A stretch of DNA of 64,000 bases, taken from Escherichia coli. GTDB taxonomy: Bacteria > Pseudomonadota > Gammaproteobacteria > Enterobacterales > Enterobacteriaceae. How positions within the stretch are numbered: the first letter of the stretch is position 1; each line of letters starts with the position of its first letter. This document shows positions 8,395 through 46,690 of the stretch, piece after piece. The position numbers were made by a program, and so were the translations under genes. The stretch lies in NCBI RefSeq assembly GCF_965641715.1, contig NZ_OZ282453.1; one strand, 5' to 3'. Below the pieces are notes generated by a model. The model did not search any database. It had not been told where the DNA came from and was given only the letters and a program-made list of their open reading frames with translations.

Positions 8395-8525
8395 GGACTG
8401 TTACCCTAACCCTCTCCCCAGAGGGGCGAGTGGACCGATCGCACTCAATGTTGCTGCTTGAAACCGGTACGTAGGACGGATAAGGCGTTCACGCCGCATC
8501 CGGCAAGCAAGTGTAATGGAATACA
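8395..8525. repeat. REP-type intergenic palindromic repeats
   Basis: gtaggacggataaggcgttcacgccgcatccggcaagc and ccctctccccagaggggcgag palindromes. Confidence 0.55.
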
Positions 8526-8528
8526 CAA

Positions 8529-8837
8529 ATGGATTATTTAATTCCTGTTTGCCTGGGATTGCTGGGATTGTTCGCGATGTTCGCCCCCAATTGGCTGATG
8601 CCTGTTTTAATCGCCGTGGGGGGATGGCTGGTGGTACTTGCCTGTGGTTGGCTCTGGCTAATGATTTTTTTACCTTTACTTAACGGCGTCGGGCTTGCTT
8701 ATGCCCTGTGGTTGATGTTCAAAAGGCCATCATTCACGTCCCGCCTGGTTGCTACATGTTGTGTTATCTCCGTCATTCTGATGTTAGCGCTATATTACAC
8801 TTTCCTGACCATGCCACCGTTCCCGGCCCAGCACTAA
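8529..8837 (+). CDS. Hypothetical small membrane protein (102 aa); may be non-coding
   Basis: ORF track only; very hydrophobic; sits between convergent tusA and zntA. Confidence 0.2.
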   Translation: MDYLIPVCLGLLGLFAMFAPNWLMPVLIAVGGWLVVLACGWLWLMIFLPLLNGVGLAYALWLMFKRPSFTSRLVATCCVISVILMLALYYTFLTMPPFPAQH

Positions 8838-8869
8838 CCCTGATAGCCAGAGGCTATCAGGCAACACCT

Positions 8870-11068
8870 TTATTTCCTGCGCAACAACCTTAACGCATTC
8901 GCCGTTACCAGCACCGTCGCACCCGTATCTGCCAGCACCGCCAGCCATAGTCCGGTCATTCCTAACAGCGTGGTGACGAGGAAGATCCCTTTCAGCCCCA
9001 GCGCAATAGTGATGTTCTGGCGGATATTGGCGTGAGTGGCGCGTGCCAGTTCAATCATTTGCACCAGACCGCGCAGGTGGTTATGGGTTAATGCTGCGTC
9101 GGCGGTTTCCAGCGCCACGTCTGTGCCGCTGCCCATTGCAATCCCGATGGCGGCAGCTTTCATCGCTGGCGCGTCGTTAATACCGTCACCGACCATCGCC
9201 AGCGGCGCATGTTGATTCAGCTCGGTCACCGCTTTGACTTTATCTTCCGGCAACAGGCCCGCTTTAAACTCCAGCCCCAGCTCCCCGGCAATTGCCGCCG
9301 CTGCGCGTGGATTATCGCCGGTGAGGATCACCCCTTTGACGCCCAGCGCGTTCAGTTCACTGATGGCAGTTGCAGCATCGGCGCGCAGGGTATCCTGTAA
9401 CGCAATGACACCAAGCACGTCATCGTTACGTACTACCAGCACTACCGTTTGCCCGGCGCTTTCCAGTTCGTTAATTAAACCAGCAAATGCATCAGCGGGA
9501 TGTTTCCCGGCAGCGCAAATCAATACGCGCTCACCGTTAACCTGCGCTTCAATGCCAGACCCGACCAGCGCCCGCTGTGATTCGGCGGCGGGAATGGCGA
9601 GTGCAGCAACCTGTGCTTCGCGCACGATGGCCTGCGCCAGTGGATGCGTCGCGCCTTGCTCGACCGCCGCCGCCAGTGTCAGCAGTTCAGATTCACTAAT
9701 ACCCGTTGCCGGATGAATCGCGGTAACGCGCGGTTTACCGACGGTCAGCGTACCGGTTTTATCAAACGCCACCTGGGTAACACGACCTAGCTGCTCCAGC
9801 GCCGCACCGCCTTTAATTAACGCCCCACGACGTGCCGCTGCTGCCAGCCCGGAGGTAATCACCGCGGGCGTGGAGATAACTAACGCACACGGGCAGCCAA
9901 TCAGCAGCAGCGTCAGCCCTTTATAAATCCACTCCTGCCAGCTTGCGGCAAACAGCAGCGGCGGCACCAGCGTTACCAGCAGGGCGACGGCCATAATTGC
10001 TGGCGTATAAATGCGGCTGAAACGGTCGATAAACCGCTCAATGGGGGCGCGGCGCTCTTCGGCTTCTTCGATCAGTTTCAGAATCCGGTCAATGGCGCTG
10101 GCACCCGGTTCTGACAGCACTTCCAGCGTTACCAGACGGTCTACGCTGGTGGCGCCTGCAGGAACTTTATCGCCCGTCGCGCGCTCCACCGGAATGGATT
10201 CTCCGGTCAGGGCGCTTTCATCAAAACTGGCAAACGGTGAGAGCAGTTTACCGTCGGCAGGCAAACGCCCACCTGCGGCGACTTCAATCACATCGCCAGG
10301 GCGCAGGCTGTTAATCGCCACCTCTTCCCGCTCACCGTTACGCAGGCGCGTGGCGGTTTCTGGTTTCAGCGCCATTAACGCGCTAACGCCCTGACGCGCG
10401 CGGCTGGCGGCCCAGCCTTCCAGTCGTTCACCAATCAAAAACAGCAGCAACACCATCGCAGCTTCAGCCGTTGCGCCAATAAACAGCGCACCAATAGCAG
10501 CTACGCTCATTAAGGTTTCAATGGCGAAGTAGCTGCCGGATTTGATCAGCCGTAATGCCTGACGAGCAATCGGGTACAGCCCAACCAGCGTGGTCGCGAT
10601 AAACGCCAGTTGCCCGAACGGATGATTGAACTGCTCCAGACCCCAGCTGATTGCCATCATCACGATTAGCGTAATCAGCGGCAGATTCTCTTTCAGGCGC
10701 GATTCTTGTGGCTCGTCGGCGGCCTGCTCATCGCGCAGGGAATAGCCCGCTTTTTGCACCGCAGATTCAACCTGGGCACGGATGTCATTGTCGGCATCAA
10801 CCACCAGTTTTTCGGTGGCGAACAGTACCTGCACCTGATTCACGCCTGCAAGCTGGCGCACGGCATTTTCTACCTTGCGCGCACAGGCGGCGCAGTCCAT
10901 GCCGCTGACTTTCCAGCTATAGCGGGTGCCGGAGACGTTTTCAGAGAGCGTTGGCGTGCTGGAACATGCGCCGTCGCAGCAACAGTCGTTGGCGTTCTGT
11001 ACCGTGGTTAGCGGTTTGAACGCAGCAAATTGAGGGGCTTTCTTGCCGTGATTGTCAGGAGTCGACAT
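8870..11068 (-). CDS. zntA: Zn/Cd/Pb-exporting P1B-type ATPase
   Basis: 732 aa; CxxC metal-binding motif (GMDCAAC), CPC, DKTGT phosphorylation site, GDGINDAP. Confidence 0.97.
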   Translation of the reverse strand: MSTPDNHGKKAPQFAAFKPLTTVQNANDCCCDGACSSTPTLSENVSGTRYSWKVSGMDCAACARKVENAVRQLAGVNQVQVLFATEKLVVDADNDIRAQVESAVQKAGYSLRDEQAADEPQESRLKENLPLITLIVMMAISWGLEQFNHPFGQLAFIATTLVGLYPIARQALRLIKSGSYFAIETLMSVAAIGALFIGATAEAAMVLLLFLIGERLEGWAASRARQGVSALMALKPETATRLRNGEREEVAINSLRPGDVIEVAAGGRLPADGKLLSPFASFDESALTGESIPVERATGDKVPAGATSVDRLVTLEVLSEPGASAIDRILKLIEEAEERRAPIERFIDRFSRIYTPAIMAVALLVTLVPPLLFAASWQEWIYKGLTLLLIGCPCALVISTPAVITSGLAAAARRGALIKGGAALEQLGRVTQVAFDKTGTLTVGKPRVTAIHPATGISESELLTLAAAVEQGATHPLAQAIVREAQVAALAIPAAESQRALVGSGIEAQVNGERVLICAAGKHPADAFAGLINELESAGQTVVLVVRNDDVLGVIALQDTLRADAATAISELNALGVKGVILTGDNPRAAAAIAGELGLEFKAGLLPEDKVKAVTELNQHAPLAMVGDGINDAPAMKAAAIGIAMGSGTDVALETADAALTHNHLRGLVQMIELARATHANIRQNITIALGLKGIFLVTTLLGMTGLWLAVLADTGATVLVTANALRLLRRK

Positions 11069-17863: not shown

Positions 17864-18967
17864 ATGAACATAAAGGGTAAAGCGTTACTGGCAGGATGTA
17901 TCGCGCTGGCATTCAGCAATATGGCTCTGGCAGAAGATATTAAAGTCGCGGTCGTGGGCGCAATGTCCGGTCCGGTTGCGCAGTACGGTGACCAGGAGTT
18001 TACCGGCGCAGAGCAGGCGGTTGCGGATATCAACGCTAAAGGCGGCATTAAAGGCAACAAACTGCAAATCGTAAAATATGACGATGCCTGTGACCCGAAA
18101 CAGGCGGTTGCGGTGGCGAACAAAGTCGTTAACGACGGCATTAAATATGTGATTGGTCACCTCTGTTCTTCATCAACGCAGCCTGCGTCTGACATCTACG
18201 AAGACGAAGGCATTTTAATGATCACCCCAGCGGCAACCGCGCCGGAGCTGACCGCCCGTGGCTATCAGCTGATCCTGCGCACCACCGGCCTGGACTCCGA
18301 CCAGGGGCCGACGGCGGCGAAATATATTCTTGAGAAAGTGAAACCGCAGCGTATTGCTATCGTTCACGACAAACAGCAATACGGCGAAGGTCTGGCGCGA
18401 GCGGTGCAGGACGGCCTGAAGAAAGGCAATGCTAACGTGGTGTTCTTTGATGGTATCACCGCCGGGGAAAAAGATTTCTCAACGCTGGTGGCGCGTCTGA
18501 AAAAAGAGAATATCGACTTCGTTTACTACGGCGGTTATCACCCGGAAATGGGGCAAATCCTGCGTCAGGCACGCGCGGCAGGGCTGAAAACTCAGTTTAT
18601 GGGGCCGGAAGGTGTGGCTAACGTTTCGCTGTCTAACATTGCGGGCGAATCAGCGGAAGGGCTGCTGGTGACCAAGCCGAAGAACTACGATCAGGTTCCG
18701 GCGAACAAACCCATTGTTGACGCGATCAAAGCGAAAAAACAGGACCCAAGTGGCGCGTTCGTCTGGACCACCTACGCCGCGCTGCAATCTTTGCAGGCGG
18801 GCCTGAATCAGTCTGACGATCCGGCTGAGATCGCCAAATACCTGAAAGCGAACTCGGTTGATACCGTGATGGGTTCGCTGACGTGGGATGAGAAAGGTGA
18901 TCTGAAAGGCTTTGAGTTCGGTGTGTTTGACTGGCACGCCAACGGCACGGCGACCGATGCGAAGTAA
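17864..18967 (+). CDS. livJ: Leu/Ile/Val periplasmic binding protein
   Basis: ORF 17807..18967; start [23 protein letters not shown] (signal peptide). Confidence 0.95.
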
Positions 18968-18985
18968 CGGATAGATAAATGAAAA

Positions 18986-19019
18986 TGCCCGATGCGCTTA
19001 ACGTCCATCGGGTTTTTTT
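18986..19019 (+). terminator. Rho-independent terminator of livJ
   Basis: Hairpin gcccgatgcgcttaacgtccatcgggt plus T-run. Confidence 0.7.
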
Positions 19020-19116
19020 ATGTTTGTCGAAATGGTTGTAGAAAGATTAAACAATCCAGGATATGCTTATTGTACGGTGATGTGCCGTACATATTATACG
19101 GAGCAGGAGAGTTCAC

Positions 19117-19383
19117 ATGTCTGCTGTTAAAAAGCAGCGTATCGATCTGCGTTTAACTGACGATGACAAAAGTATGATTGAGGAAGCGGCAGCGATATCT
19201 AATCAGTCCGTCAGCCAATTTATGTTGAACAGCGCTTCGCAGCGGGCTGCGGAAGTGATTGAACAGCATCGGCGGGTGATCCTCAATGAGGAATCCTGGA
19301 CGCGGGTGATGGATGCGCTGAGTAATCCACCGTCACCAGGTGAAAAGCTAAAACGTGCGGTAAAACGTCTTCAGGGAATGTAA
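19117..19383 (+). CDS. ataR: DUF1778-type antitoxin of a GNAT toxin-antitoxin pair (88 aa)
   Basis: Small protein immediately upstream (6-bp gap) of a GNAT gene; symbol assigned from memory of the O157:H7 AtaR-AtaT locus. Confidence 0.7.
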   Translation: MSAVKKQRIDLRLTDDDKSMIEEAAAISNQSVSQFMLNSASQRAAEVIEQHRRVILNEESWTRVMDALSNPPSPGEKLKRAVKRLQGM

Positions 19384-19389
19384 TAATTT

Positions 19390-19917
19390 ATGGATGATCT
19401 GACGATAGAGATTCTGACCGATGATGCAGATTATGATCTACAGCGATTCGACTGCGGCGAGGAAGCGTTAAATCTCTTTCTGACGACACATCTCGTTCGT
19501 CAACATCGCAACAAAATTCTGCGAGCGTATATCCTTTGTCGCAACACTCCAGAACGTCAGGTGCTGGGATATTACACATTATCCGGCAGTTGTTTTGAAC
19601 GAGCCGCATTGCCCTCGAAATCGAAACAGAAAAAAATTCCCTACAAAAATATTCCCAGCGTCACTCTTGGGCGTCTGGCAATTGATCGTTCATTACAGGG
19701 GCAGGGATGGGGAGCAACACTGGTTGCTCATGCCATGAAAGTCGTCTGGTCAGCCTCTTTAGCGGTAGGTATTCACGGTCTTTTTGTCGAGGCGCTGAAT
19801 GAAAAAGCCCATACGTTTTATAAATCGCTGGGCTTTATCCCTTTAGTCGGGGAAAACGAAAATGCGTTATTTTTCCCAACCAAATCCATTGAACTGCTTT
19901 TTACACAGAGCGATTAA
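19390..19917 (+). CDS. ataT: GNAT-family tRNA-acetylating toxin (175 aa)
   Basis: GNAT acetyl-CoA motif region (QGQGWGATLV); paired with upstream antitoxin-like gene. Confidence 0.7.
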   Translation: MDDLTIEILTDDADYDLQRFDCGEEALNLFLTTHLVRQHRNKILRAYILCRNTPERQVLGYYTLSGSCFERAALPSKSKQKKIPYKNIPSVTLGRLAIDRSLQGQGWGATLVAHAMKVVWSASLAVGIHGLFVEALNEKAHTFYKSLGFIPLVGENENALFFPTKSIELLFTQSD

Positions 19918-32283: not shown

Positions 32284-34029
32284 ATGATAAAACCGACGTT
32301 TTTACGCCGGGTGGCCATTGCTGCTCTGTTCACAGGAAGTTGTTTTAGTACGGTAGCCGCGCCACCTGCGCCGTCTCCTGTTTCTTACGGCGTGGAGGAA
32401 GATGTCTTTCATCCGGTACGCGCGAAACAGGGGATGGTGGCATCTGTAGATGCTACTGCCACTCAGGTGGGGGTGGATATCCTCAAGGAGGGCGGGAATG
32501 CCGTTGATGCCGCCGTGGCTGTGGGCTACGCGCTGGCGGTAACGCATCCGCAGGCAGGGAATCTGGGCGGTGGTGGTTTTATGCTGATCCGCTCGAAAAA
32601 TGGCAATACCACCGCTATCGATTTCCGCGAAATGGCACCCGCCAAAGCGACCCGCGATATGTTCCTTGATGACCAGGGCAACCCGGACAGCAAAAAATCA
32701 CTCACTTCGCATCTGGCTTCCGGCACGCCCGGTACGGTCGCTGGTTTCTCGCTGGCGTTGGATAAATACGGCACAATGCCGTTGAACAAAGTGGTGCAGC
32801 CAGCGTTTAAACTGGCACGCGATGGTTTTATCGTTAACGACGCGCTGGCTGACGATCTCAAAACCTACGGGAGCGAAGTGCTGCCGAATCACGAAAACAG
32901 CAAGGCTATCTTCTGGAAAGAGGGCGAGCCGCTGAAAAAGGGCGACAAGCTGGTGCAGGCGAACCTGGCAAAGAGCCTGGAGATGATTGCCGAAAACGGC
33001 CCGGACGAATTCTACAAAGGCACGATAGCGGAACAGATTGCCCAGGAGATGCAGAAAAACGGTGGCCTGATCACTAAAGAAGATTTAGCGGCGTATAAAG
33101 CGGTCGAACGCACACCGATAAGCGGCGATTATCGCGGGTATCAGGTTTACTCTATGCCACCGCCATCTTCCGGTGGGATTCATATCGTGCAGATCCTCAA
33201 TATTCTGGAAAACTTCGATATGAAGAAATACGGCTTTGGCAGTGCCGATGCGATGCAAATCATGGCAGAGGCTGAGAAATACGCCTACGCCGACCGCTCG
33301 GAATATCTTGGCGACCCGGATTTTGTCAAAGTCCCGTGGCAGGCGCTGACCAATAAAGCCTATGCCAAATCTATTGCCGAGCAAATCGATATCAATAAAG
33401 CGAAACCGTCCAGCGAGATTCGCCCTGGCAAGCTTGCGCCTTATGAGAGTAATCAAACTACCCATTACTCAGTGGTGGATAAAGACGGTAACGCCGTGGC
33501 GGTGACCTATACGCTGAACACCACCTTCGGTACGGGTATTGTCGCGGGCGAGAGCGGTATTCTGCTTAATAACCAGATGGATGATTTCTCCGCCAAACCG
33601 GGCGTACCGAACGTTTACGGGCTGGTAGGCGGTGATGCCAACGCGGTCGGGCCGAATAAACGCCCGCTGTCGTCGATGTCACCAACCATTGTGGTGAAAG
33701 ACGGTAAAACCTGGCTGGTTACCGGTAGCCCTGGCGGGAGCCGGATTATTACCACCGTGCTGCAAATGGTGGTGAATAGCATCGATTATGGCATGAACGT
33801 CGCCGAAGCGACCAATGCGCCGCGTTTCCACCATCAGTGGTTGCCGGACGAGCTGCGTGTCGAAAAAGGGTTTAGCCCGGATACGCTCAAACTGCTGGAA
33901 GCAAAAGGTCAGAAAGTGGCGCTGAAAGAGGCGATGGGCAGTACACAAAGCATTATGGTTGGGCCGGACGGTGAGTTGTACGGCGCATCCGACCCGCGCT
34001 CGGTGGATGATTTAACGGCGGGGTACTAA
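32284..34029 (+). CDS. ggt: Gamma-glutamyltranspeptidase
   Basis: ORF 32257..34029; start MIKPTFLRR; 580 aa. Confidence 0.95.
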   Translation: MIKPTFLRRVAIAALFTGSCFSTVAAPPAPSPVSYGVEEDVFHPVRAKQGMVASVDATATQVGVDILKEGGNAVDAAVAVGYALAVTHPQAGNLGGGGFMLIRSKNGNTTAIDFREMAPAKATRDMFLDDQGNPDSKKSLTSHLASGTPGTVAGFSLALDKYGTMPLNKVVQPAFKLARDGFIVNDALADDLKTYGSEVLPNHENSKAIFWKEGEPLKKGDKLVQANLAKSLEMIAENGPDEFYKGTIAEQIAQEMQKNGGLITKEDLAAYKAVERTPISGDYRGYQVYSMPPPSSGGIHIVQILNILENFDMKKYGFGSADAMQIMAEAEKYAYADRSEYLGDPDFVKVPWQALTNKAYAKSIAEQIDINKAKPSSEIRPGKLAPYESNQTTHYSVVDKDGNAVAVTYTLNTTFGTGIVAGESGILLNNQMDDFSAKPGVPNVYGLVGGDANAVGPNKRPLSSMSPTIVVKDGKTWLVTGSPGGSRIITTVLQMVVNSIDYGMNVAEATNAPRFHHQWLPDELRVEKGFSPDTLKLLEAKGQKVALKEAMGSTQSIMVGPDGELYGASDPRSVDDLTAGY

Positions 34030-34066
34030 GGTTAGCGGCCCTCTTCGTGGGAAGAGGGCTATTTTG

Positions 34067-34351
34067 TCAGGGCAAGCCGAAGGTAGCCTTTTTTATTTCG
34101 TAATCCTGTAGATATTCTTCCAGCGGCTTTGCCGTTCCCAGAGAATGAATTTCACCACTGTCTTTATCAATAATAAAAGGTGCGTTACCAGCTAAGCGCG
34201 CGGCCTCATCTCCAGTTTCGAGAAATTCTCGTGCTTCGAAACAGAAATACCAGCCCTGGCTAAAGCGTCCATGTAGAGTAATGACGACCGGGAGATCTGC
34301 ATCATCAAGGTAATGGTTCGCTTTCGCGAATGCGTCGTGATAAGTAATCAT
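34067..34351 (-). CDS. yrhB: YrhB-family small protein (immunity-like)
   Basis: 94 aa; matches recalled K-12 YrhB. Confidence 0.8.
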   Translation of the reverse strand: MITYHDAFAKANHYLDDADLPVVITLHGRFSQGWYFCFEAREFLETGDEAARLAGNAPFIIDKDSGEIHSLGTAKPLEEYLQDYEIKKATFGLP

Positions 34352-34800
34352 AATTATAATAAATATTATTGTTGAATGTTATATTATTATTCCTGTGTGA
34401 TACATTGAGCAAAGGTGCATTCATCTTCGTCAAAGATATTATTAAATGCTGGTTTTGAAAAAAGTTCATCGGATAAGATATAGTCACGAAATAAGTATCT
34501 GCTAATATTTTGTGATTTCTTTTTCAGAACGTCGAACGGGATTTTCTTATTTAAGATATCAGAATCTTATGATTTGGGTAAAATTCTAAATAAATCAACA
34601 TGTCACTAAAATCATCATAGCCATTAGCTATTTCGGCTAAAATAGAGACTACATGTCTTCGGTCCATCTCACTTAAGGAGTGTAGTTCCGTTGTAAGTTT
34701 TTCCATAGCTTGCATTGCTAAATTTCGAACAAGGAATTTTCTGGTGGTAATCTCTAAAAAGATGGCATGGTTTACAATGATTTTTGTTTCCTTTTGATTA

Positions 34801-35295
34801 TTATGAACAACTATCCATGATTTCGTTTAAGAATGAAGAGAAATCACTAAACGAACTGAATATATTTTCTGTGCCAATATTATCTCTAATTTCAAAAAAG
34901 TTACTTTTAATGTCATAAGTAAATATTGAAATGCTATCATCCCCGATCACTAACCGTTCTTGTAGATCAGGGTTTATGAAATCATCATTATTTCTATAAA
35001 ATTCATTTACGGCAAAAAGGTTTTTAACTGAAGGTTCTGGAATCGAGAGGCTAAATAATCGCAATCCATTAACTTCGAATCCATCCATTGCTCTTAAAAA
35101 AGTAAGATAATCAGGTTGATTCTTAAAAAGAATACTAACTTCATTACATAACTTCTCCAGGCAATTAGTTGAATTAGAATTAAATTCTATTTGGATTATA
35201 CTTTCAATAAATGATTCCTTGAGCGGTGCTTCAAATGGATAGTCTAAATCATTCATCATTTTTATTAATTTGTTTATTTGGGTTTTAGTCATCAT
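34801..35295 (-). CDS. yrhA: Putative immunity protein for the upstream HNH toxin domain (YrhA-like), intact here
   Basis: 164 aa; start overlaps the toxin ORF stop by 4 bp; low-GC gene. Confidence 0.6.
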   Translation of the reverse strand: MMTKTQINKLIKMMNDLDYPFEAPLKESFIESIIQIEFNSNSTNCLEKLCNEVSILFKNQPDYLTFLRAMDGFEVNGLRLFSLSIPEPSVKNLFAVNEFYRNNDDFINPDLQERLVIGDDSISIFTYDIKSNFFEIRDNIGTENIFSSFSDFSSFLNEIMDSCS

Positions 35296-36470
35296 TTTGT
35301 GGGTTCCATAATATTTTTCATGGGAGGATAAATTGAGCCAGATGGAATGGCCCAGGGAGTGATTTTGCTTTCACCTACTAATATTCCCTTAGCTATTCGT
35401 GATTGCATGTTAGTAAAAACTTTATGATATGGTTCGTTTTCGATTAATACTAAATTTTCGAAATCATTAGTACCACCATCATCTAGAGATAGTTTATGGT
35501 GAACATTATAATTTAGAGGAACATAGCCCTTTCTCATTCTTAAAAGGTCTTCGGTGTTGAATCTTCCAGATGCTTCGGAGGTTTTTGCAAGTTTGATAAG
35601 AAAATTTTTTCTTACAGTTTTGTTAAACTCCTTTCGTAAGTTAGCTAAGTCTTTTGAAGGTCTCTTAATGTATATTATTTATATTATGTCTATGCCATCA
35701 AGAAGTTTTTGTTGATCTCTAAGTTTGCCTAAGTAACTATTTATTTCTGTATATGTATCAACTTTAGAACGCTTTGTTAAAAGAATAGATGCTGTTGCTA
35801 TCGCTATGCCCGCTGTTTTTTCATTTAGTATTTGATCATAGCCTTTGATTGCATCTCCACCCAGTTTTTCCGCAGTATCTCTGAATCCTTCAATGTTCCC
35901 ATTGTATACGCCACCAGCAGCAAGTAGCCTGCCAACAGCTTTGCTGTTTAACGTTTTGAAACGATTATTTGTTTGGTTTTTTGAATTTGGTAAAAACAAA
36001 CGGTTATAATTTTCAGGGAGTGCCAAATAGCTGAACTCGGTATTTGCGATAAGATGTTGACAGAGGATAAATTCATAACTAACAGTTATTGTTTCTGTAT
36101 CCAGTTGATTTTGAATGATCTGATGATGAATAGCCGATAAAAAAGCGCCTCTTAGTTGTGTATAATAATACTTTTCCCATCTACCAAATCTATTGATTCT
36201 ATAAAAGTCAAATTTCATAAATAATTGCTCATTATTGTTAATGGAATTAATAAGTAATGGAGTGCTTTTATCAATTAATTTACAAAATGTCATAGCCTGT
36301 AACTGTGAACCAAGCCCCGTATTAGTAATTCTATTTTCGAGTGAGAATGTAAATATTTCATTCTCATGCCCGCTCTGCCAGCGATTACCTATAGATTCAG
36401 TAGTCCCACAACCTGCGGAGATGCTTCCTTGTTGTTCTCCCGTTACTGTCAGATAAACAATATTACTCAT
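35292..36470 (-). pseudogene. yhhZ: Hcp-domain protein fused to a C-terminal HNH nuclease toxin (yhhZ-like), interrupted by one in-frame TAA at 35679..35681
   Basis: 263-aa ORF with Hcp-like N-terminus; same frame continues after the single stop through 47 codons into the 81-aa HNH ORF (NVHHKLSLDDGGTNDFENLVLIENEPYH); 392 codons in total. Confidence 0.65.
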
Positions 36471-36706
36471 CCCTGAAAAGTCCTTTTATGGCATGCTATT
36501 TTATCAATGGCACTATTATGCTTGTTAATTGTTATTTATTTACTCCAGGAAATTGTAGGCGTATATATTAAAAAATAAAATATTACACTTTAGGAAGTAA
36601 TTATGAGGTAAGTCTCAATATATTTATTGGGAAAATAAATACATTAAAGGAAGGTATGCCGATTTTGAATGACACCCTTTTTCCATCTCAGAAAAAGGGC
36701 ACTATT

Positions 36707-37195
36707 TTACTTCACCCGCGCCATAAAATACGCATCAACATATTCACCATTACGTAATGCGTACTTCTTGCCAGTCCCTTCAATCTCAAAGCCGAATTTT
36801 TTATAGACCTTAATTGCTGGCGCGTTATCGACAAACACCGTTAGCTCAATACGATCTACCCGCAACCAGTTGTCGCACATTTCAATCATCTCTCGCATCA
36901 GGGCGCTGGCGACGCCGCGATTCTTCCAGCGGGCGTCGACACAGATACCAAAATCGGCAACATGACTGCGGCGTGGGCGCTGTTGCACGTCAATGGTGAG
37001 ATGGCCCACGACGTCTCCATCAATACAGGCGACGAGTTGCTTGATGCCGGGACGATTGGCGAGTCGCTCCTGCCACATATAATCGGAAGGATGAGGCACT
37101 TGTAGCGTGTTGTAATACACCTCCGGCTGGGCGTGAATCTGCCTGATGGCCTCGTAATCGCGCGTTTCAGCATGGCGTATCACTATCTCACTCAT
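36707..37195 (-). CDS. yhhY: GNAT-family N-acetyltransferase
   Basis: ORF 36707..37273; start MSEIVIRHAE gives 162 aa. Confidence 0.85.
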   Translation of the reverse strand: MSEIVIRHAETRDYEAIRQIHAQPEVYYNTLQVPHPSDYMWQERLANRPGIKQLVACIDGDVVGHLTIDVQQRPRRSHVADFGICVDARWKNRGVASALMREMIEMCDNWLRVDRIELTVFVDNAPAIKVYKKFGFEIEGTGKKYALRNGEYVDAYFMARVK

Positions 37196-41272: not shown

Positions 41273-42613
41273 GTGACTACATTAACGCTTGTTTTAACAG
41301 CAGTAGGGTCTGTTTTACTGCTGCTGTTTTTAGTCATGAAGGCGCGTATGCACGCTTTCCTGGCTTTGATGGTGGTGTCCATGGGGGCTGGCCTTTTTTC
41401 CGGTATGCCGCTCGATAAAATCGCAGCGACGATGGAAAAAGGGATGGGAGGCACCCTCGGCTTCCTGGCGGTGGTTGTCGCCCTGGGAGCTATGTTTGGC
41501 AAGATCTTACATGAAACCGGCGCAGTCGATCAGATTGCCGTCAAAATGCTCAAATCCTTCGGTCACAGCCGCGCGCATTATGCCATCGGCCTTGCGGGGC
41601 TGGTCTGTGCGCTACCGCTGTTCTTTGAAGTGGCGATTGTTCTGCTGATTAGCGTTGCTTTCTCAATGGCGCGCCACACCGGTACGAACCTGGTGAAGCT
41701 GGTAATCCCATTATTCGCAGGCGTGGCGGCAGCGGCGGCGTTCCTGGTGCCAGGGCCAGCGCCAATGCTGCTGGCATCGCAGATGAACGCCGATTTTGGC
41801 TGGATGATCCTGATTGGCCTGTGTGCGGCAATTCCGGGAATGATTATTGCCGGGCCGCTGTGGGGTAACTTCATCAGCCGTTACGTTGAGCTGCATATTC
41901 CTGATGACATCAGCGAGCCGCATCTCGGCGAAGGCAAAATGCCGTCCTTCGGATTCAGCCTGTCGCTGATCCTGCTGCCGCTGGTGCTGGTGGGGCTGAA
42001 AACCATTGCCGCGCGTTTTGTGCCAGAAGGCTCTACCGCTTACGAATGGTTCGAGTTTATTGGTCATCCGTTTACCGCGATTCTGGTTGCTTGTCTGGTA
42101 GCGATTTATGGCCTGGCAATGCGTCAGGGCATGCCAAAAGACAAAGTGATGGAGATTTGCGGTCACGCGCTGCAACCGGCGGGGATCATTCTGCTGGTGA
42201 TTGGTGCGGGCGGCGTGTTCAAACAGGTGCTGGTTGACTCTGGCGTAGGTCCGGCACTGGGCGAAGCGTTAACCGGCATGGGCCTGCCGATTGCTATCAC
42301 CTGCTTCGTGCTGGCCGCTGCAGTGCGCATCATTCAGGGTTCTGCAACCGTTGCCTGTTTAACGGCGGTGGGACTGGTGATGCCGGTTATTGAACAACTG
42401 AACTACTCCGGTGCGCAAATGGCGGCGCTGTCGATTTGTATCGCCGGTGGTTCGATTGTTGTCAGCCACGTTAACGACGCTGGTTTCTGGTTGTTCGGTA
42501 AATTTACCGGCGCGACCGAAGCCGAAACGCTGAAAACCTGGACCATGATGGAAACCATCCTCGGCACTGTCGGTGCCATCGTTGGGATGATTGCGTTCCA
42601 GCTGTTGAGTTAA
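41273..42613 (+). CDS. gntU: Low-affinity gluconate transporter
   Basis: 446 aa GntP-family permease. Confidence 0.95.
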   Translation: MTTLTLVLTAVGSVLLLLFLVMKARMHAFLALMVVSMGAGLFSGMPLDKIAATMEKGMGGTLGFLAVVVALGAMFGKILHETGAVDQIAVKMLKSFGHSRAHYAIGLAGLVCALPLFFEVAIVLLISVAFSMARHTGTNLVKLVIPLFAGVAAAAAFLVPGPAPMLLASQMNADFGWMILIGLCAAIPGMIIAGPLWGNFISRYVELHIPDDISEPHLGEGKMPSFGFSLSLILLPLVLVGLKTIAARFVPEGSTAYEWFEFIGHPFTAILVACLVAIYGLAMRQGMPKDKVMEICGHALQPAGIILLVIGAGGVFKQVLVDSGVGPALGEALTGMGLPIAITCFVLAAAVRIIQGSATVACLTAVGLVMPVIEQLNYSGAQMAALSICIAGGSIVVSHVNDAGFWLFGKFTGATEAETLKTWTMMETILGTVGAIVGMIAFQLLS

Positions 42614-42625
42614 TTACTGCGACAA

Positions 42626-42670
42626 ATTACTGCGAGCTTGCTCGCAGTAATTCATTTCTCTTTTCTCCTC
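42626..42670 (+). terminator. Rho-independent terminator after gntU
   Basis: Hairpin attactgcgagcttgctcgcagtaat followed by T-rich tract. Confidence 0.65.
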
Positions 42671-42752
42671 TCTTCATCTTTTTGATCTCTCTCGCAAATT
42701 TACCTGCAAATAATCCGTTCTAATCACTGCCTAAAGATCGCAGGAGATAAAG

Positions 42753-44849
42753 ATGGAAAAGCACGCAGCTGAATTGCTTTTACAGCGGATGTTAGGAAAT
42801 ACCACCGCTACTTTCAGGGAAGGGCAATGGGAAGCCATAGACGCGGTGGTGAACCAACGGCGAAAACTGCTGGTTGTCCAACGCACTGGCTGGGGGAAAA
42901 GTGCTGTGTACTTCATCGCCAGTAAAATCTTCCGCGATCGCGGCGCTGGCCCGACAATTATCATCTCTCCTTTGCTTGCCCTGATGCGTAACCAGGTTGC
43001 CGCCGCTGAACGGTTAGGTATTACGGCTGAAACGTTGAATTCTACAAACAGAGAAGAATGGCAGCGCATTAGCGATAAGTTGCTGCAAGGTGAGGTCGAT
43101 TGCTTGCTGGTTTCCCCGGAACGTTTGGCAAACCAGGACTTTATCGAAACGGTTTTATATCCTATAGCCGATCGTATTGGCTTGCTTGTGGTCGACGAGG
43201 CGCACTGCATCTCTGATTGGGGCCACGATTTTCGCCCGGATTACCGACGTATATTAGATATTTTGCGCCAACTACCTGCGAATACCCCTGTTCTGGGTAC
43301 AACCGCGACAGCGAATAACCGTGTCGTTGAGGATATCCGTCAGCAATTGGGTGACATTGTGATTCAGCGTGGAACGCTGGCTCGCGAAAGTTTGGCGCTT
43401 GATGCCTTAGTCTTAGGTGAACAGTCATCCCGTCTGGCATGGTTAGCAACGGTTATCCCTCAGTTTTCCAAATCGGGAATTGTTTATACCCTGACTACTC
43501 GCGATGCCGAACTTGTCGCCGAGTGGTTAAGGAAAAATGGTATCAGTGCATTTGCTTACTACAGCGGCGTGACTTGCGAAGGCGCGGAAGATTCTAATAC
43601 TGCCAGGGAATATCTGGAGCAGGCGTTGCTGGCAAATAAAATTAAAGTGCTGGTTGCGACAACGGCGCTGGGAATGGGCTTTGACAAACCGGATTTGGGG
43701 TTTGTTATTCATTACCAGATGCCAGGTTCGATAGTTGGTTACTACCAACAGGTGGGGCGTGCCGGTCGCGGTATCGATTCTGCTGTTGGCATACTGCTTT
43801 GCGGCAGTGAAGACCGTGCTATTCATAAATTCTTCCGTGAAAGCGCCTTTCCTGCGGAGGCGCAAATTCATGAAATACTCAACGTACTTAGCGTGAATGA
43901 CGGTCTTACCTTACGAGGCATTGAACAACGGACGAATCTCCGTTATGGGCAAATAGAAAAAGCACTGAAATTATTGGTAGCTGAAAATCCATCGCCTGTG
44001 GTGTATACCGAGAAATTATGGCGCAGAACAATTGTCAGTTTTTCTCCTGACCATGAACGAATTAACCATTTGATGAATCAGAGAAAAAGTGAGCTGGCAG
44101 ACGTTGAAAGCTATATCACGACCAAGGAGTGCAAAATGCAATTTCTGCGCCGCGCACTCGATGAGCCAGGTGCCGAACATTGTGGTAAATGTAGCAGTTG
44201 TCTTCAGCATCCGTTGTTGTCGCCCGACATTGATAGCGGCTTACTCCATGCGGCAAACTTATTTATTAAACACGCTGACCTGCCATTAAATCTCAATAAA
44301 CAGGTGGCAGCTGGGGCTTTTACGCAATACGGATTTAAAGGGAACTTGCCTGCGAGTTTACAAGGATCTACGGGGCGAATCCTTTCTCGTTGGGGAGATT
44401 CCGGGTGGGGAAAGCAGGTAGCACAGGAGAAAAAAACGGGGCGATTCAGTGATGAACTGGTGGAGGCATGTGCGGAAATGGTTCGCCAACGCTGGAATCC
44501 GCATCCTGAACCAACCTGGGTATGCTGCGTTCCTTCATTAAAGCACCTCGACCTGGTTCCTGATTTTGCCCGGCGACTGGCGGCGAAACTTGGCTTACCT
44601 TTTATTGATGCCATTGAAAAAGTCGTGGACAATCCACCGCAGAAAATGCAGCAAAACCGTTTCCACCAGTGTCAAAATCTCGACGGGGCGTTTGTGATTA
44701 CCCCTCCTTTGATGCCTGGTCCGGCGTTGCTGGTTGACGATATCGTGGATTCTGCATGGACGCTGACAGTTCTGACAGCACTGTTACGCCAGGCAGGTTG
44801 CCCGACGGTTTATCCTCTTGCCCTTGCTTCTACCTCGGTAAAAAATTGA
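42753..44849 (+). CDS. RecQ-family helicase fused to C-terminal phosphoribosyltransferase-like domain (698 aa); candidate toxin/effector
   Basis: RecQ motifs GWGKS, VVDEAHCISDWGHDFRPDY, GTTATA, QQVGRAGRG; C-terminal PRTase-type motif LLVDDIVDSAWTLT. Confidence 0.8.
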   Translation: MEKHAAELLLQRMLGNTTATFREGQWEAIDAVVNQRRKLLVVQRTGWGKSAVYFIASKIFRDRGAGPTIIISPLLALMRNQVAAAERLGITAETLNSTNREEWQRISDKLLQGEVDCLLVSPERLANQDFIETVLYPIADRIGLLVVDEAHCISDWGHDFRPDYRRILDILRQLPANTPVLGTTATANNRVVEDIRQQLGDIVIQRGTLARESLALDALVLGEQSSRLAWLATVIPQFSKSGIVYTLTTRDAELVAEWLRKNGISAFAYYSGVTCEGAEDSNTAREYLEQALLANKIKVLVATTALGMGFDKPDLGFVIHYQMPGSIVGYYQQVGRAGRGIDSAVGILLCGSEDRAIHKFFRESAFPAEAQIHEILNVLSVNDGLTLRGIEQRTNLRYGQIEKALKLLVAENPSPVVYTEKLWRRTIVSFSPDHERINHLMNQRKSELADVESYITTKECKMQFLRRALDEPGAEHCGKCSSCLQHPLLSPDIDSGLLHAANLFIKHADLPLNLNKQVAAGAFTQYGFKGNLPASLQGSTGRILSRWGDSGWGKQVAQEKKTGRFSDELVEACAEMVRQRWNPHPEPTWVCCVPSLKHLDLVPDFARRLAAKLGLPFIDAIEKVVDNPPQKMQQNRFHQCQNLDGAFVITPPLMPGPALLVDDIVDSAWTLTVLTALLRQAGCPTVYPLALASTSVKN

Positions 44850-46051
44850 TGAATCTTTCAGCCAATGCACAAGCAACTCTCCTGCTAACCAGCGATTTTT
44901 CTCGCGCGGCGGCGAGTGAGTATAAACCTCTTAGTAATAGTGAATGGGGGAAGTTTGCATTATGGCTGAAGCACCAACGTATCAGTCCCGCCGAGCTTCT
45001 GGTGCCGCAACCGCAAGAGAAACTTACAGGCTGGAGCGATCCGCGTATTTCTCAGGAGCGTATTCTTGGCTTGCTGGCGCGTGGTCATAGTCTGGCGTTG
45101 GCGGTAGATAAGTGGCAACGCGCCGGTTTATGGATCTTAACCCGCGGAGATGCTGATTATCCCGTTCGCTTGAAAAACCGATTGCGAACGGATGCACCTC
45201 CCGTTTTATTTGGCTGCGGGAATAAAGCATTACTGCAAGCGGAAGGTATGGCGATTGTTGGCTCGCGAGATGCTCCGACTGACGATTTGCGCTATACCCA
45301 ACAACTGGCCGCGAAACTGGCCCAACAGGGGATTTGCGTTATCTCTGGTGGTGCGCGAGGTATTGATGAATGTGCAATGGCGTCGGCACTGGAGGCCGGG
45401 GGAACTGCCGTTGGCGTATTAGCTGATAGCTTGTTAAAAACGAGTACGTTAGTGAAATGGCGTGAAGGGCTTATAGCAGGCAACCTGGTGTTGATTTCGC
45501 CGTTTTACCCAGAGGTACGTTTCACCGTCGGCAATGCGATGGCGCGAAATAAATATATTTATTGCCTTGCTGAAAGCGCAATGGTTGTACGTGCGGGAAT
45601 GACCGGTGGAACGATAACCGGGGCGATGGAGGCATTAAAACATCAGTGGCTGCCTGTGCAGGTTAAACCAAATCAGGATATGCAATCAGCCAATTCACGA
45701 TTAGTAGAAAATGGGGCGTCATGGAGTGCTGAACAGGCTGAGAATGTGACGATCAGACTGCCAGACGTTCCTGGGCTGATGTATGACAGAGCACTCCGTA
45801 ACGCTCAACCAGAACTGTTTTCGCTGCATGAAGATGACGCAAATTACGCAGTAATGCCCGCGTATACGCCTGTCGATTTTTATCAACTCTTTGTGGCGGA
45901 ACTGGCGATCCTTGCAAAGGAATCGATAAGTATTGAAAGGCTGGCGTCTTGTACTGGTTTAACCATCGAACAAATTAGTGTGTGGCTGAACCGCGCAGAA
46001 GAAGAGGGAAGGGTTATCCGATTGGGCGAAGGTCATTATCAGTTCAGGTAA
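44849..46051 (+). CDS. DprA/Smf-like (SLOG Rossmann) protein with C-terminal winged helix (400 aa); candidate antitoxin/partner
   Basis: ORF 44756..46051; ATG at 44849 overlaps upstream stop (TGATG); DprA-like GSRD and ISGGARGID motifs. Confidence 0.75.
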   Translation: MNLSANAQATLLLTSDFSRAAASEYKPLSNSEWGKFALWLKHQRISPAELLVPQPQEKLTGWSDPRISQERILGLLARGHSLALAVDKWQRAGLWILTRGDADYPVRLKNRLRTDAPPVLFGCGNKALLQAEGMAIVGSRDAPTDDLRYTQQLAAKLAQQGICVISGGARGIDECAMASALEAGGTAVGVLADSLLKTSTLVKWREGLIAGNLVLISPFYPEVRFTVGNAMARNKYIYCLAESAMVVRAGMTGGTITGAMEALKHQWLPVQVKPNQDMQSANSRLVENGASWSAEQAENVTIRLPDVPGLMYDRALRNAQPELFSLHEDDANYAVMPAYTPVDFYQLFVAELAILAKESISIERLASCTGLTIEQISVWLNRAEEEGRVIRLGEGHYQFR

Positions 46052-46096
46052 TAAAACAGGTGCCGCGTCTGGTTGTGTGCAGCACCTGTTTGAACC

Positions 46097-46690
46097 TTAC
46101 CCCTTCATCCACATTCGAATGCCGTCGAGGAACATCTGGGTTGCCATCATCACCAGAATCAATCCCATCAGGCGTTCAAGTGCGTTCACCCCTTTCTCGC
46201 CCAGCAGACGTAAAAATAGCGAAGACTGTAGCAGGATGACAAAGGTGCCGCCCCAGGCCAGCAGCAGAGCAATCACCAGATGTCCCATCTGATTCGGGTA
46301 CTGATGAGACAACAACATCAGCGTGGCGAGAATAGTTGGCCCGGCGACCAGCGGAATTGCCAGCGGCACGATAAATGGCTCTTCACCTGCCGGAAGCCCG
46401 CTGCTATTTCCTGAAGCGCTGGGGAAAATCATCTTAATGGCAATTAGAAACAGAATGATGCCGCCAGAAATGGAGACGGTTTCTGCTCGCAGGCTGAGAA
46501 ATGCCAGAATTTTCTCACCCGCAAACAGGAACACCAGCATCACCAGGAGAGCAATAAGCAACTCTCGCACCATGATTGCCCGCCGTCTTTTCGGTTCAGT
46601 ATGTTTCAGTACGGACATGAAAATAGGTAGGTTTCCGAGCGGATCCATAATCAGGATCAATAAAACTGCTGCAGAAATGATTTCATTCAT
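46097..46690 (-). CDS. yhgN: MarC-family membrane protein
   Basis: 197 aa; synteny next to asd. Confidence 0.9.
   Translation of the reverse strand: MNEIISAAVLLILIMDPLGNLPIFMSVLKHTEPKRRRAIMVRELLIALLVMLVFLFAGEKILAFLSLRAETVSISGGIILFLIAIKMIFPSASGNSSGLPAGEEPFIVPLAIPLVAGPTILATLMLLSHQYPNQMGHLVIALLLAWGGTFVILLQSSLFLRLLGEKGVNALERLMGLILVMMATQMFLDGIRMWMKG

Follow-up and report, generated by a model that had tools for sequence, protein, structure and literature searches.

The stretch of DNA analysed here, called the window in the following, comprises 64,000 nucleotides of the Escherichia coli chromosome (contig NZ_OZ282453.1). Between gntR-gntK-gntU on one side and yhgN-asd-glgB on the other side, it carries rqlH (psyrT), which encodes a RecQ-like helicase that bears a phosphoribosyltransferase (PRTase) domain at its C-terminus, and directly downstream rqlI (psyrA), which encodes a DprA-like partner. 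An earlier note on this DNA had flagged the span 44560..44849 as a PRTase-like extension of a RecQ helicase. This span corresponds to the final 96 codons and the stop codon of the rqlH open reading frame (ORF), that is to residues 603–698. Judged by its sequence, the gene is the E. coli RqlH/PsyrT, the toxin of the toxin–antitoxin (TA) and anti-phage system RqlHI/PsyrTA, which is already published and not new. The coordinates of the features are collected in Table 1.

Table 1. Features of the rqlH-rqlI locus, with positions counted from the first letter of the window (PRPP, phosphoribosyl pyrophosphate; SF2, superfamily 2).
Feature	Position	Strand	Remarks
Terminator-like hairpin, left block edge, just 3' of the gntU stop	42625..42652	+	terminator scan; RNA fold -16.6 kcal/mol, z -4.67
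rqlH / psyrT, presumed toxin	42753..44849	+	698-aa RecQ-like helicase with C-terminal PRTase domain
SF2 helicase core, residues ~23-339	42819..43769	+	Walker A GWGKS at K49, DEAH (VDEAH) at D148, QxxGRAGR at 332
Winged-helix domain, RqlH residues ~369-425	43857..44027	+	from predicted structure
RecQ-type tetracysteine zinc module, residues ~443-484	44079..44204	+	C460, C477, C480, C483
ComF-like type I PRTase domain, residues ~509-698 (~190 aa)	44277..44846	+	
PRPP-binding loop LLVDDIVDSAWTLT, residues 659-672	44727..44768	+	aligned with the PRPP loop of PRPP synthetases and HGPRTs
rqlI / psyrA, DprA-like, presumed antitoxin	44849..46051	+	400 aa from ATG 44849
Hairpin, right block edge, between convergent rqlI and yhgN	~46054..46091		RNA fold -18.9 kcal/mol, z -3.44

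The identity of rqlH is assigned because the protein matches the PADLOC PsyrT model over its full length and because key residue numbers coincide. Model PDLC03928 is matched at E=0 with 1065.9 bits, where residues 3–697 align with profile positions 5–687 of 689. K49, D148 and D663 of the window ORF carry the residue numbers of the published E. coli RqlH (PMC4670107). The RefSeq record WP_000410811.1 is named 'RecQ family ATP-dependent DNA helicase', and the protein passes the subfamily cutoff of NCBIfam recQ_fam (253.9 bits, cutoff 219.8). The PsyrT/PsyrA name is reportedly also tied to Sberro 2013. Assignment to the canonical RecQ equivalogs was rejected, as TIGR01389 reaches 298 versus 640.2 bits and NF008279 reaches 226 versus 1015, and no HRDC domain is found. 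The protein also falls outside ComFC/GntX, for which NF008616 gives 15.4 bits versus a cutoff of 304; its domain is fused to a helicase and is not a small stand-alone protein.

The N-terminal part of RqlH is an SF2 helicase core, which is matched by the Pfam profiles DEAD (E 4.9e-25) and Helicase_C (E 9.5e-13). In the PDB, the core finds RecQ, BLM and RECQ1, and the best E-value of 4e-53 is reached for E. coli RecQ (PDB 1OYW). The segment adjacent to the core was described by Ordonez et al. in 2012 as a linker that is specific to RqlH and has no RecQ counterpart (PMC3378886). In our structural model, this linker is predicted with high confidence to hold a winged-helix domain that lies N-terminal to the zinc cysteines. 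The zinc module itself is detected by Pfam RecQ_Zn_bind with E 0.001-0.003 on RqlH and with E<=0.1 in 90 of the 97 homologues. Its profile aligns with the RecQ zinc region of D. radiodurans and E. coli, and the four cysteines given in Table 1 are all invariant among the aligned homologues. RqlH and canonical RecQ thus have the helicase core and the four-cysteine zinc module in common, whereas RqlH has no HRDC, carries its winged helix before and not after the zinc cysteines, and ends in a PRTase. The earlier note had expected a protein without the standard HRDC end, and indeed none was found in Pfam, PDB-sequence or fold searches of RqlH. Its proposal of an extension of roughly 300 residues holds in part. 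The PRTase is real and, at residues ~509-698, larger than flagged; the rest of the extension is made up of the predicted winged helix and the RecQ zinc module.

The flagged motif LLVDDIVDSAWT spans residues 659-670 (L659-L-V-D662-D663-I-V-D666-S-A-W669-T670). When the tail was searched against the PDB as a single sequence, nothing significant was found, with only APRT at E 0.13, so that profiles of the homologues and a predicted structure had to be used. A homologue search with residues 360-698 yielded 408 matches, mostly 50-68% identical, and 96 of these were aligned (alignment A1). Because the homologues of this first profile ran upstream and helicase matches dominated the PDB search, a trimmed alignment of the tail was built for the PDB profile search (A2). 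The A2 profile matches PRPP-loop proteins only. The top match is the PRPP synthetase of B. subtilis at E 3.8e-4, in which iliDDiiDtagT stands opposite llvDDivDsgwT of the RqlH family. When the 97 aligned sequences were scanned individually with Pfam Pribosyltran, 85 matched at E<=0.001, the best at E 3.8e-10. Within the motif, the aligned homologues show no variation at D662, S667, W669 and T670 and almost none at D663 and D666. The loop PQKxQQNRFHQCxNLDGxF at residues 629-647 is a further conserved element of the PRTase domain.

The AlphaFold2 model calculated from A1 has a mean predicted local distance difference test score (pLDDT) of 91.7 and a predicted template modelling score (pTM) of 0.82. 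In this model, LLVDDIVD forms a beta-strand that is followed by a short loop and then by a helix, which is the topology of a PRPP loop. A Foldseek search against the PDB places H. pylori ComFC (7p0h) first with E 2.4e-4, followed by APRT, HGPRT, OPRT and PurF at probabilities of ~0.9-1.0. Fold searches with the PRTase domain also match ShosT. Model and profiles together support a ComF-type PRTase fold for the RqlH tail, and not an HRDC domain. From the order of secondary structure elements and from the alignments, the LLVDD motif would sit at the position of the PRPP loop, and its conserved residues suggest that the domain binds PRPP. Fold, profile and conservation agree here with the earlier note, which had recognised a PRTase-like nucleotide-binding motif at the C-terminus and had proposed a fold prediction of the tail as a check: the prediction gives a ComF-type PRTase with LLVDD aligned with the PRPP loop, and neither a standard RQC/HRDC end nor an unrelated fold appears. 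For the NAD-type chemistry that it had considered as well, we find nothing specific in support.

Within the PRTase domain and just N-terminal of its core, the segment GRILSRWGDxGWG (residues 541-553, 44373-44411) is nearly invariant across homologues that are otherwise ~50-70% identical. It might serve as a contact surface for the helicase, RqlI or DNA.

The downstream ORF is matched by PADLOC PsyrA at E 1.5e-202, and the match covers positions 1-397 of the 398 in the profile. PADLOC ShosA also matches it, more weakly than PsyrA. In Pfam, RqlI is matched by DNA_processg_A (DprA) at E 4.7e-51 and by the SLOG cluster4 profile (LDcluster4) at E 4.4e-11. RefSeq starts rqlI at ATG 44756, which gives 431 residues and an overlap of 94 nt with rqlH. 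Position 1 of the PsyrA profile falls on residue 32 of this 431-residue ORF, and ATG 44849 shares one base with the TGA stop codon of rqlH (TGATG). For both reasons, we favour ATG 44849 and a likely RqlI of 400 residues. The overlap of stop and start codon in the sequence indicates that translation of rqlI is coupled to that of rqlH.

The two genes lie within a block (42614..46096) that stands in place of the 56-bp spacer between gntU and yhgN in K-12 BW25113. Homology to the K-12 type ends exactly at the stop codon of gntU (42613) and restarts at the stop codon of yhgN, and each edge of the block carries a hairpin (Table 1). In comparison with the empty site of K-12, no signs of a mobile element, namely direct repeats, integrase or tRNA target, were seen around the block. 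A sigma-70 promoter scan of 42500-46200 yielded no promoter. The block is found in 1650 of 5426 complete E. coli genomes (~30%) with 95-100% identity and is always chromosomal. It is located at the gntU/yhgN site in every record among the matches listed. rqlH and rqlI are present or absent as one unit at a single chromosomal site.

The closest known system is RqlH/RqlI, or PsyrT/PsyrA, of E. coli F11. It comes from the same species and family, shares the K49/D148/D663 numbering and has the same two-gene operon with a DprA-like downstream partner; the likeness is drawn from numbering and profiles. We see no substantive difference between the two, only strain-level variation, in line with the high identity of the block across the 1650 genomes. 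M. smegmatis RqlH (MSMEG_5935), whose full-length sequence is 41% identical to that of E. coli F11 RqlH, has the same layout of ATPase (residues 1-346), linker, zinc domain and ComF-like PRTase-like C-domain, again with no HRDC (PMC3378886). It has been studied for its helicase biochemistry only, and residues 1-505 are enough for 3'-5' helicase activity (PMC3378886). Ordonez et al. also mention that RqlH occurs in some E. coli strains (PMC3378886). In ShosT of the ShosT/ShosA pair (PDB 8ZVB, 8ZVC, 8ZVA), the PRTase is combined with an N-terminal pyrophosphatase-like hydrolase and not with a helicase (PMC11961720, PMC12961424). Sequence similarity between the PRTase domains of ShosT and RqlH is marginal, with PADLOC ShosT at E 0.027. 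ComFC of H. pylori (PDB 7P0H; PMC9005727) stands alone as a small protein, carries an N-terminal zinc finger of its own and functions in the uptake of DNA; no toxicity is known for it, and the likeness of ComFC/GntX to the RqlH domain is structural only. PRPP is bound in crystal structures of ShosT (PMC11961720, PMC12961424) and of ComFC (PMC9005727).

Function has been addressed in the F11 system. Working with this strain of extraintestinal pathogenic E. coli (ExPEC), Russell & Mulvey 2015 made the RqlH mutants K49A, D148A, D663A and DIVD663EVME (PMC4670107), so that the mutagenesis of the DD motif and of the helicase proposed in the earlier note has already been done. RqlH that lacks residues 509-690 or is mutated at D663 causes no growth inhibition, SOS induction or filamentation, and toxicity is lost in both DIVD663EVME and D663A (PMC4670107). 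The PRTase domain by itself is non-toxic, and RqlI co-immunoprecipitates with full-length RqlH, not with RqlH 1-509 (PMC4670107). Deletion of rqlI in the native ExPEC strain leads to phenotypes without any overexpression, and disruption of rqlH suppresses them (PMC4670107). For PsyrTA, Millman et al. 2022 give the name 'also called RqlHI', list it among two-gene TA systems involved in phage resistance and mention that a psyrA deletion could not be transformed (bioRxiv 10.1101/2022.05.11.491447). PRTase-dependent toxicity of RqlH (PMC4670107) and phage resistance by PsyrTA fit the suggestion of the earlier note that a toxic or abortive-infection effector is coupled to a helicase. With the architecture known since 2012 (PMC3378886) and the mutants since 2015 (PMC4670107), the idea is not new. 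Our analysis makes only small additions, which are the winged-helix assignment within the 'RqlH-specific linker', the likely rqlI start at 44849 and the exact boundaries of the indel.

We consider it very probable that the locus is a chromosomal rqlH-rqlI (psyrT-psyrA) TA and anti-phage module in which the PRTase is the toxic part and RqlI restrains RqlH. Residues ~1-505 would act as a RecQ-like 3'-5' helicase that depends on single-stranded DNA (ssDNA) and has a winged helix and zinc module, and residues ~509-698 as a ComF-like PRTase whose PRPP loop (D662, D663 ... T670) would bind PRPP or a similar phosphoribosyl ligand. When unrestrained, this PRTase would cause DNA damage, SOS induction and filamentation. 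Its toxicity would need the remainder of RqlH, which suggests that the helicase brings the chemistry to DNA. RqlI with its DprA/SLOG fold would bind RqlH, for which the PRTase region is needed, and would keep RqlH in check. Phage infection would then break the restraint and poison host and phage DNA metabolism, either as abortive infection or as a block of replication. By analogy with ShosTA, release could occur through phage-induced shut-off and a labile antitoxin, or else through sensing of ssDNA or RecA by the DprA-like partner. RqlH, as a helicase fused to a PRTase, is most likely a restrained toxin. By analogy with F11 RqlH and its identical residue numbers, the window allele probably has PRTase-dependent toxicity that is neutralised by RqlI, and the reported role of PsyrTA suggests that it would contribute to phage defence.

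One specific form of the chemistry was raised as speculation by Russell & Mulvey 2015, namely direct phosphoribosylation of DNA by RqlH (PMC4670107). Here, the helicase would expose ssDNA, on which the PRTase would modify bases or another nucleophile and produce a new SOS-triggering lesion; RqlI would protect the ssDNA or take the adduct away. This reading, which draws on the domain fusion and on the need for full-length RqlH, appears rather unlikely to us. The SLOG/DprA fold is common to LOG-type phosphoribohydrolases.

Several observations weigh against RqlH as a restrained PRTase toxin. The helicase-dead variants K49A and D148A are more toxic than the wild type (PMC4670107), so that the helicase may restrain the PRTase and not deliver it. 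The same paper describes rqlH without rqlI in many bacteria, Gram-positive ones especially (PMC4670107), which is a poor fit with an obligate toxin. Pfam Pribosyltran is weak on RqlH alone, at E 0.0087 for the full protein and E 0.0028 for the tail. ShosT bound PRPP and none of the tested purines, and PRTase catalysis has not been reported for RqlH (PMC4670107), for ComFC (PMC9005727) or for ShosT. Moreover, rqlHI is flanked by housekeeping genes and does not lie in a defence island. The genomes with rqlH and no rqlI, the lack of demonstrated catalysis and the housekeeping neighbourhood would all agree with RqlH as a housekeeping repair or recombination helicase. As a second RecQ, it would use its PRTase-like domain as a non-catalytic sensor of PRPP or nucleotides that tunes the helicase to the metabolic state; toxicity would be a side effect of overexpression, and RqlI a recombination-mediator partner. 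M. smegmatis RqlH is a genuine 3'-5' helicase in a species without RecQ (PMC3378886), and regulatory PRTase folds do exist in PurR and PyrR (cited in PMC9005727). However, loss of rqlI causes phenotypes in the native strain, where nothing is overexpressed, and disruption of rqlH suppresses them (PMC4670107), and both the psyrA deletion that could not be transformed and the phage resistance reported for PsyrTA (bioRxiv 10.1101/2022.05.11.491447) speak against this reading. Also, the module is accessory, with ~30% of E. coli genomes carrying it, and the E. coli strains that carry RqlH have RecQ as well (PMC3378886). We regard a housekeeping role as quite unlikely.

The DprA domain of RqlI, together with the finding that ComFC binds ssDNA and interacts with DprA (PMC9005727), raises a link to natural transformation, a parallel pointed out by Russell & Mulvey (PMC4670107) and by Iyer et al. 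rqlHI would then be a relic or variant of the machinery that processes incoming ssDNA, in which ComFA helicase and ComFC PRTase have a fused counterpart next to a DprA paralogue, and would not be a toxin. It is very unlikely in view of a helicase that is of RecQ type and not of ComFA type, of a neighbourhood without competence genes and of the directly observed TA-like behaviour (PMC4670107). The E. coli carriers of rqlHI also possess a canonical dprA (Russell & Mulvey, PMC4670107). The reading of RqlH as DpdF, which serves as helicase in the Dpd 7-deazaguanine DNA-modification/restriction system, has practically no probability. Many PADLOC DpdF models do match RqlH, among them two short ones on the PRTase tail, but the PsyrT match is far better and covers the full length. 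DpdF was rejected as a candidate, since NCBIfam NF041063 gives 150.4 bits versus a cutoff of 550 on the helicase core only and the neighbours are gntU and yhgN and no dpd genes.

The two short 'DpdF' models, PDLC02869 (74 positions, E 7.9e-54) and PDLC02866 (255 positions, E 2.4e-18), seem, from their matches, to represent parts of RqlH-like proteins, and PsyrT could be mislabelled as DpdF through them.

The window contains further variable regions. The type II TA pair ataR-ataT, with a GNAT acetyltransferase as toxin, lies at 18967-19911 between livJ and panM and represents a second small TA indel. It is absent in strain TUM13936 and is covered to at least 80% in 1612 of 5426 complete E. coli genomes. 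Between ggt and yhhY, a low-GC block extends over 34030-36707, with 0.34 GC in the bin 34001-36000. It holds an orphan tssD/Hcp1 of 263 aa with a C-terminal extension of ~100 aa (TIGR03344, E 2.7e-36) and, immediately 3' of it, an ORF of 81 aa with an HNH-like motif; the two may represent a split Hcp-toxin fusion. RefSeq uses the names yrhA, yrhB and yrhD in this block, which is absent in TUM13936 and present in 3757 of the 5426 genomes. At 8454-8870, adjoining zntA, the window has ~400 bp extra compared to TUM13936, with a REP-like left edge and a very hydrophobic ORF of ~100 aa (~8520-8837). The final part of a cluster located upstream of yhhT occupies positions 1-~4700. As read from the matching reference, this cluster encodes acyl carrier proteins, a ketosynthase chain-length factor, a FabZ-like dehydratase, an AMP-binding protein, a GT2 glycosyltransferase, an acyltransferase and a methyltransferase, and we presume that it resembles the aryl-polyene cluster of E. 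coli.

For the RqlH family, the locus presents an unusual and real domain fusion that can be recognised from the raw sequence. For E. coli, its presence or absence at a single site in ~30% of the complete genomes constitutes a polymorphism that is handy for comparative or fitness work.

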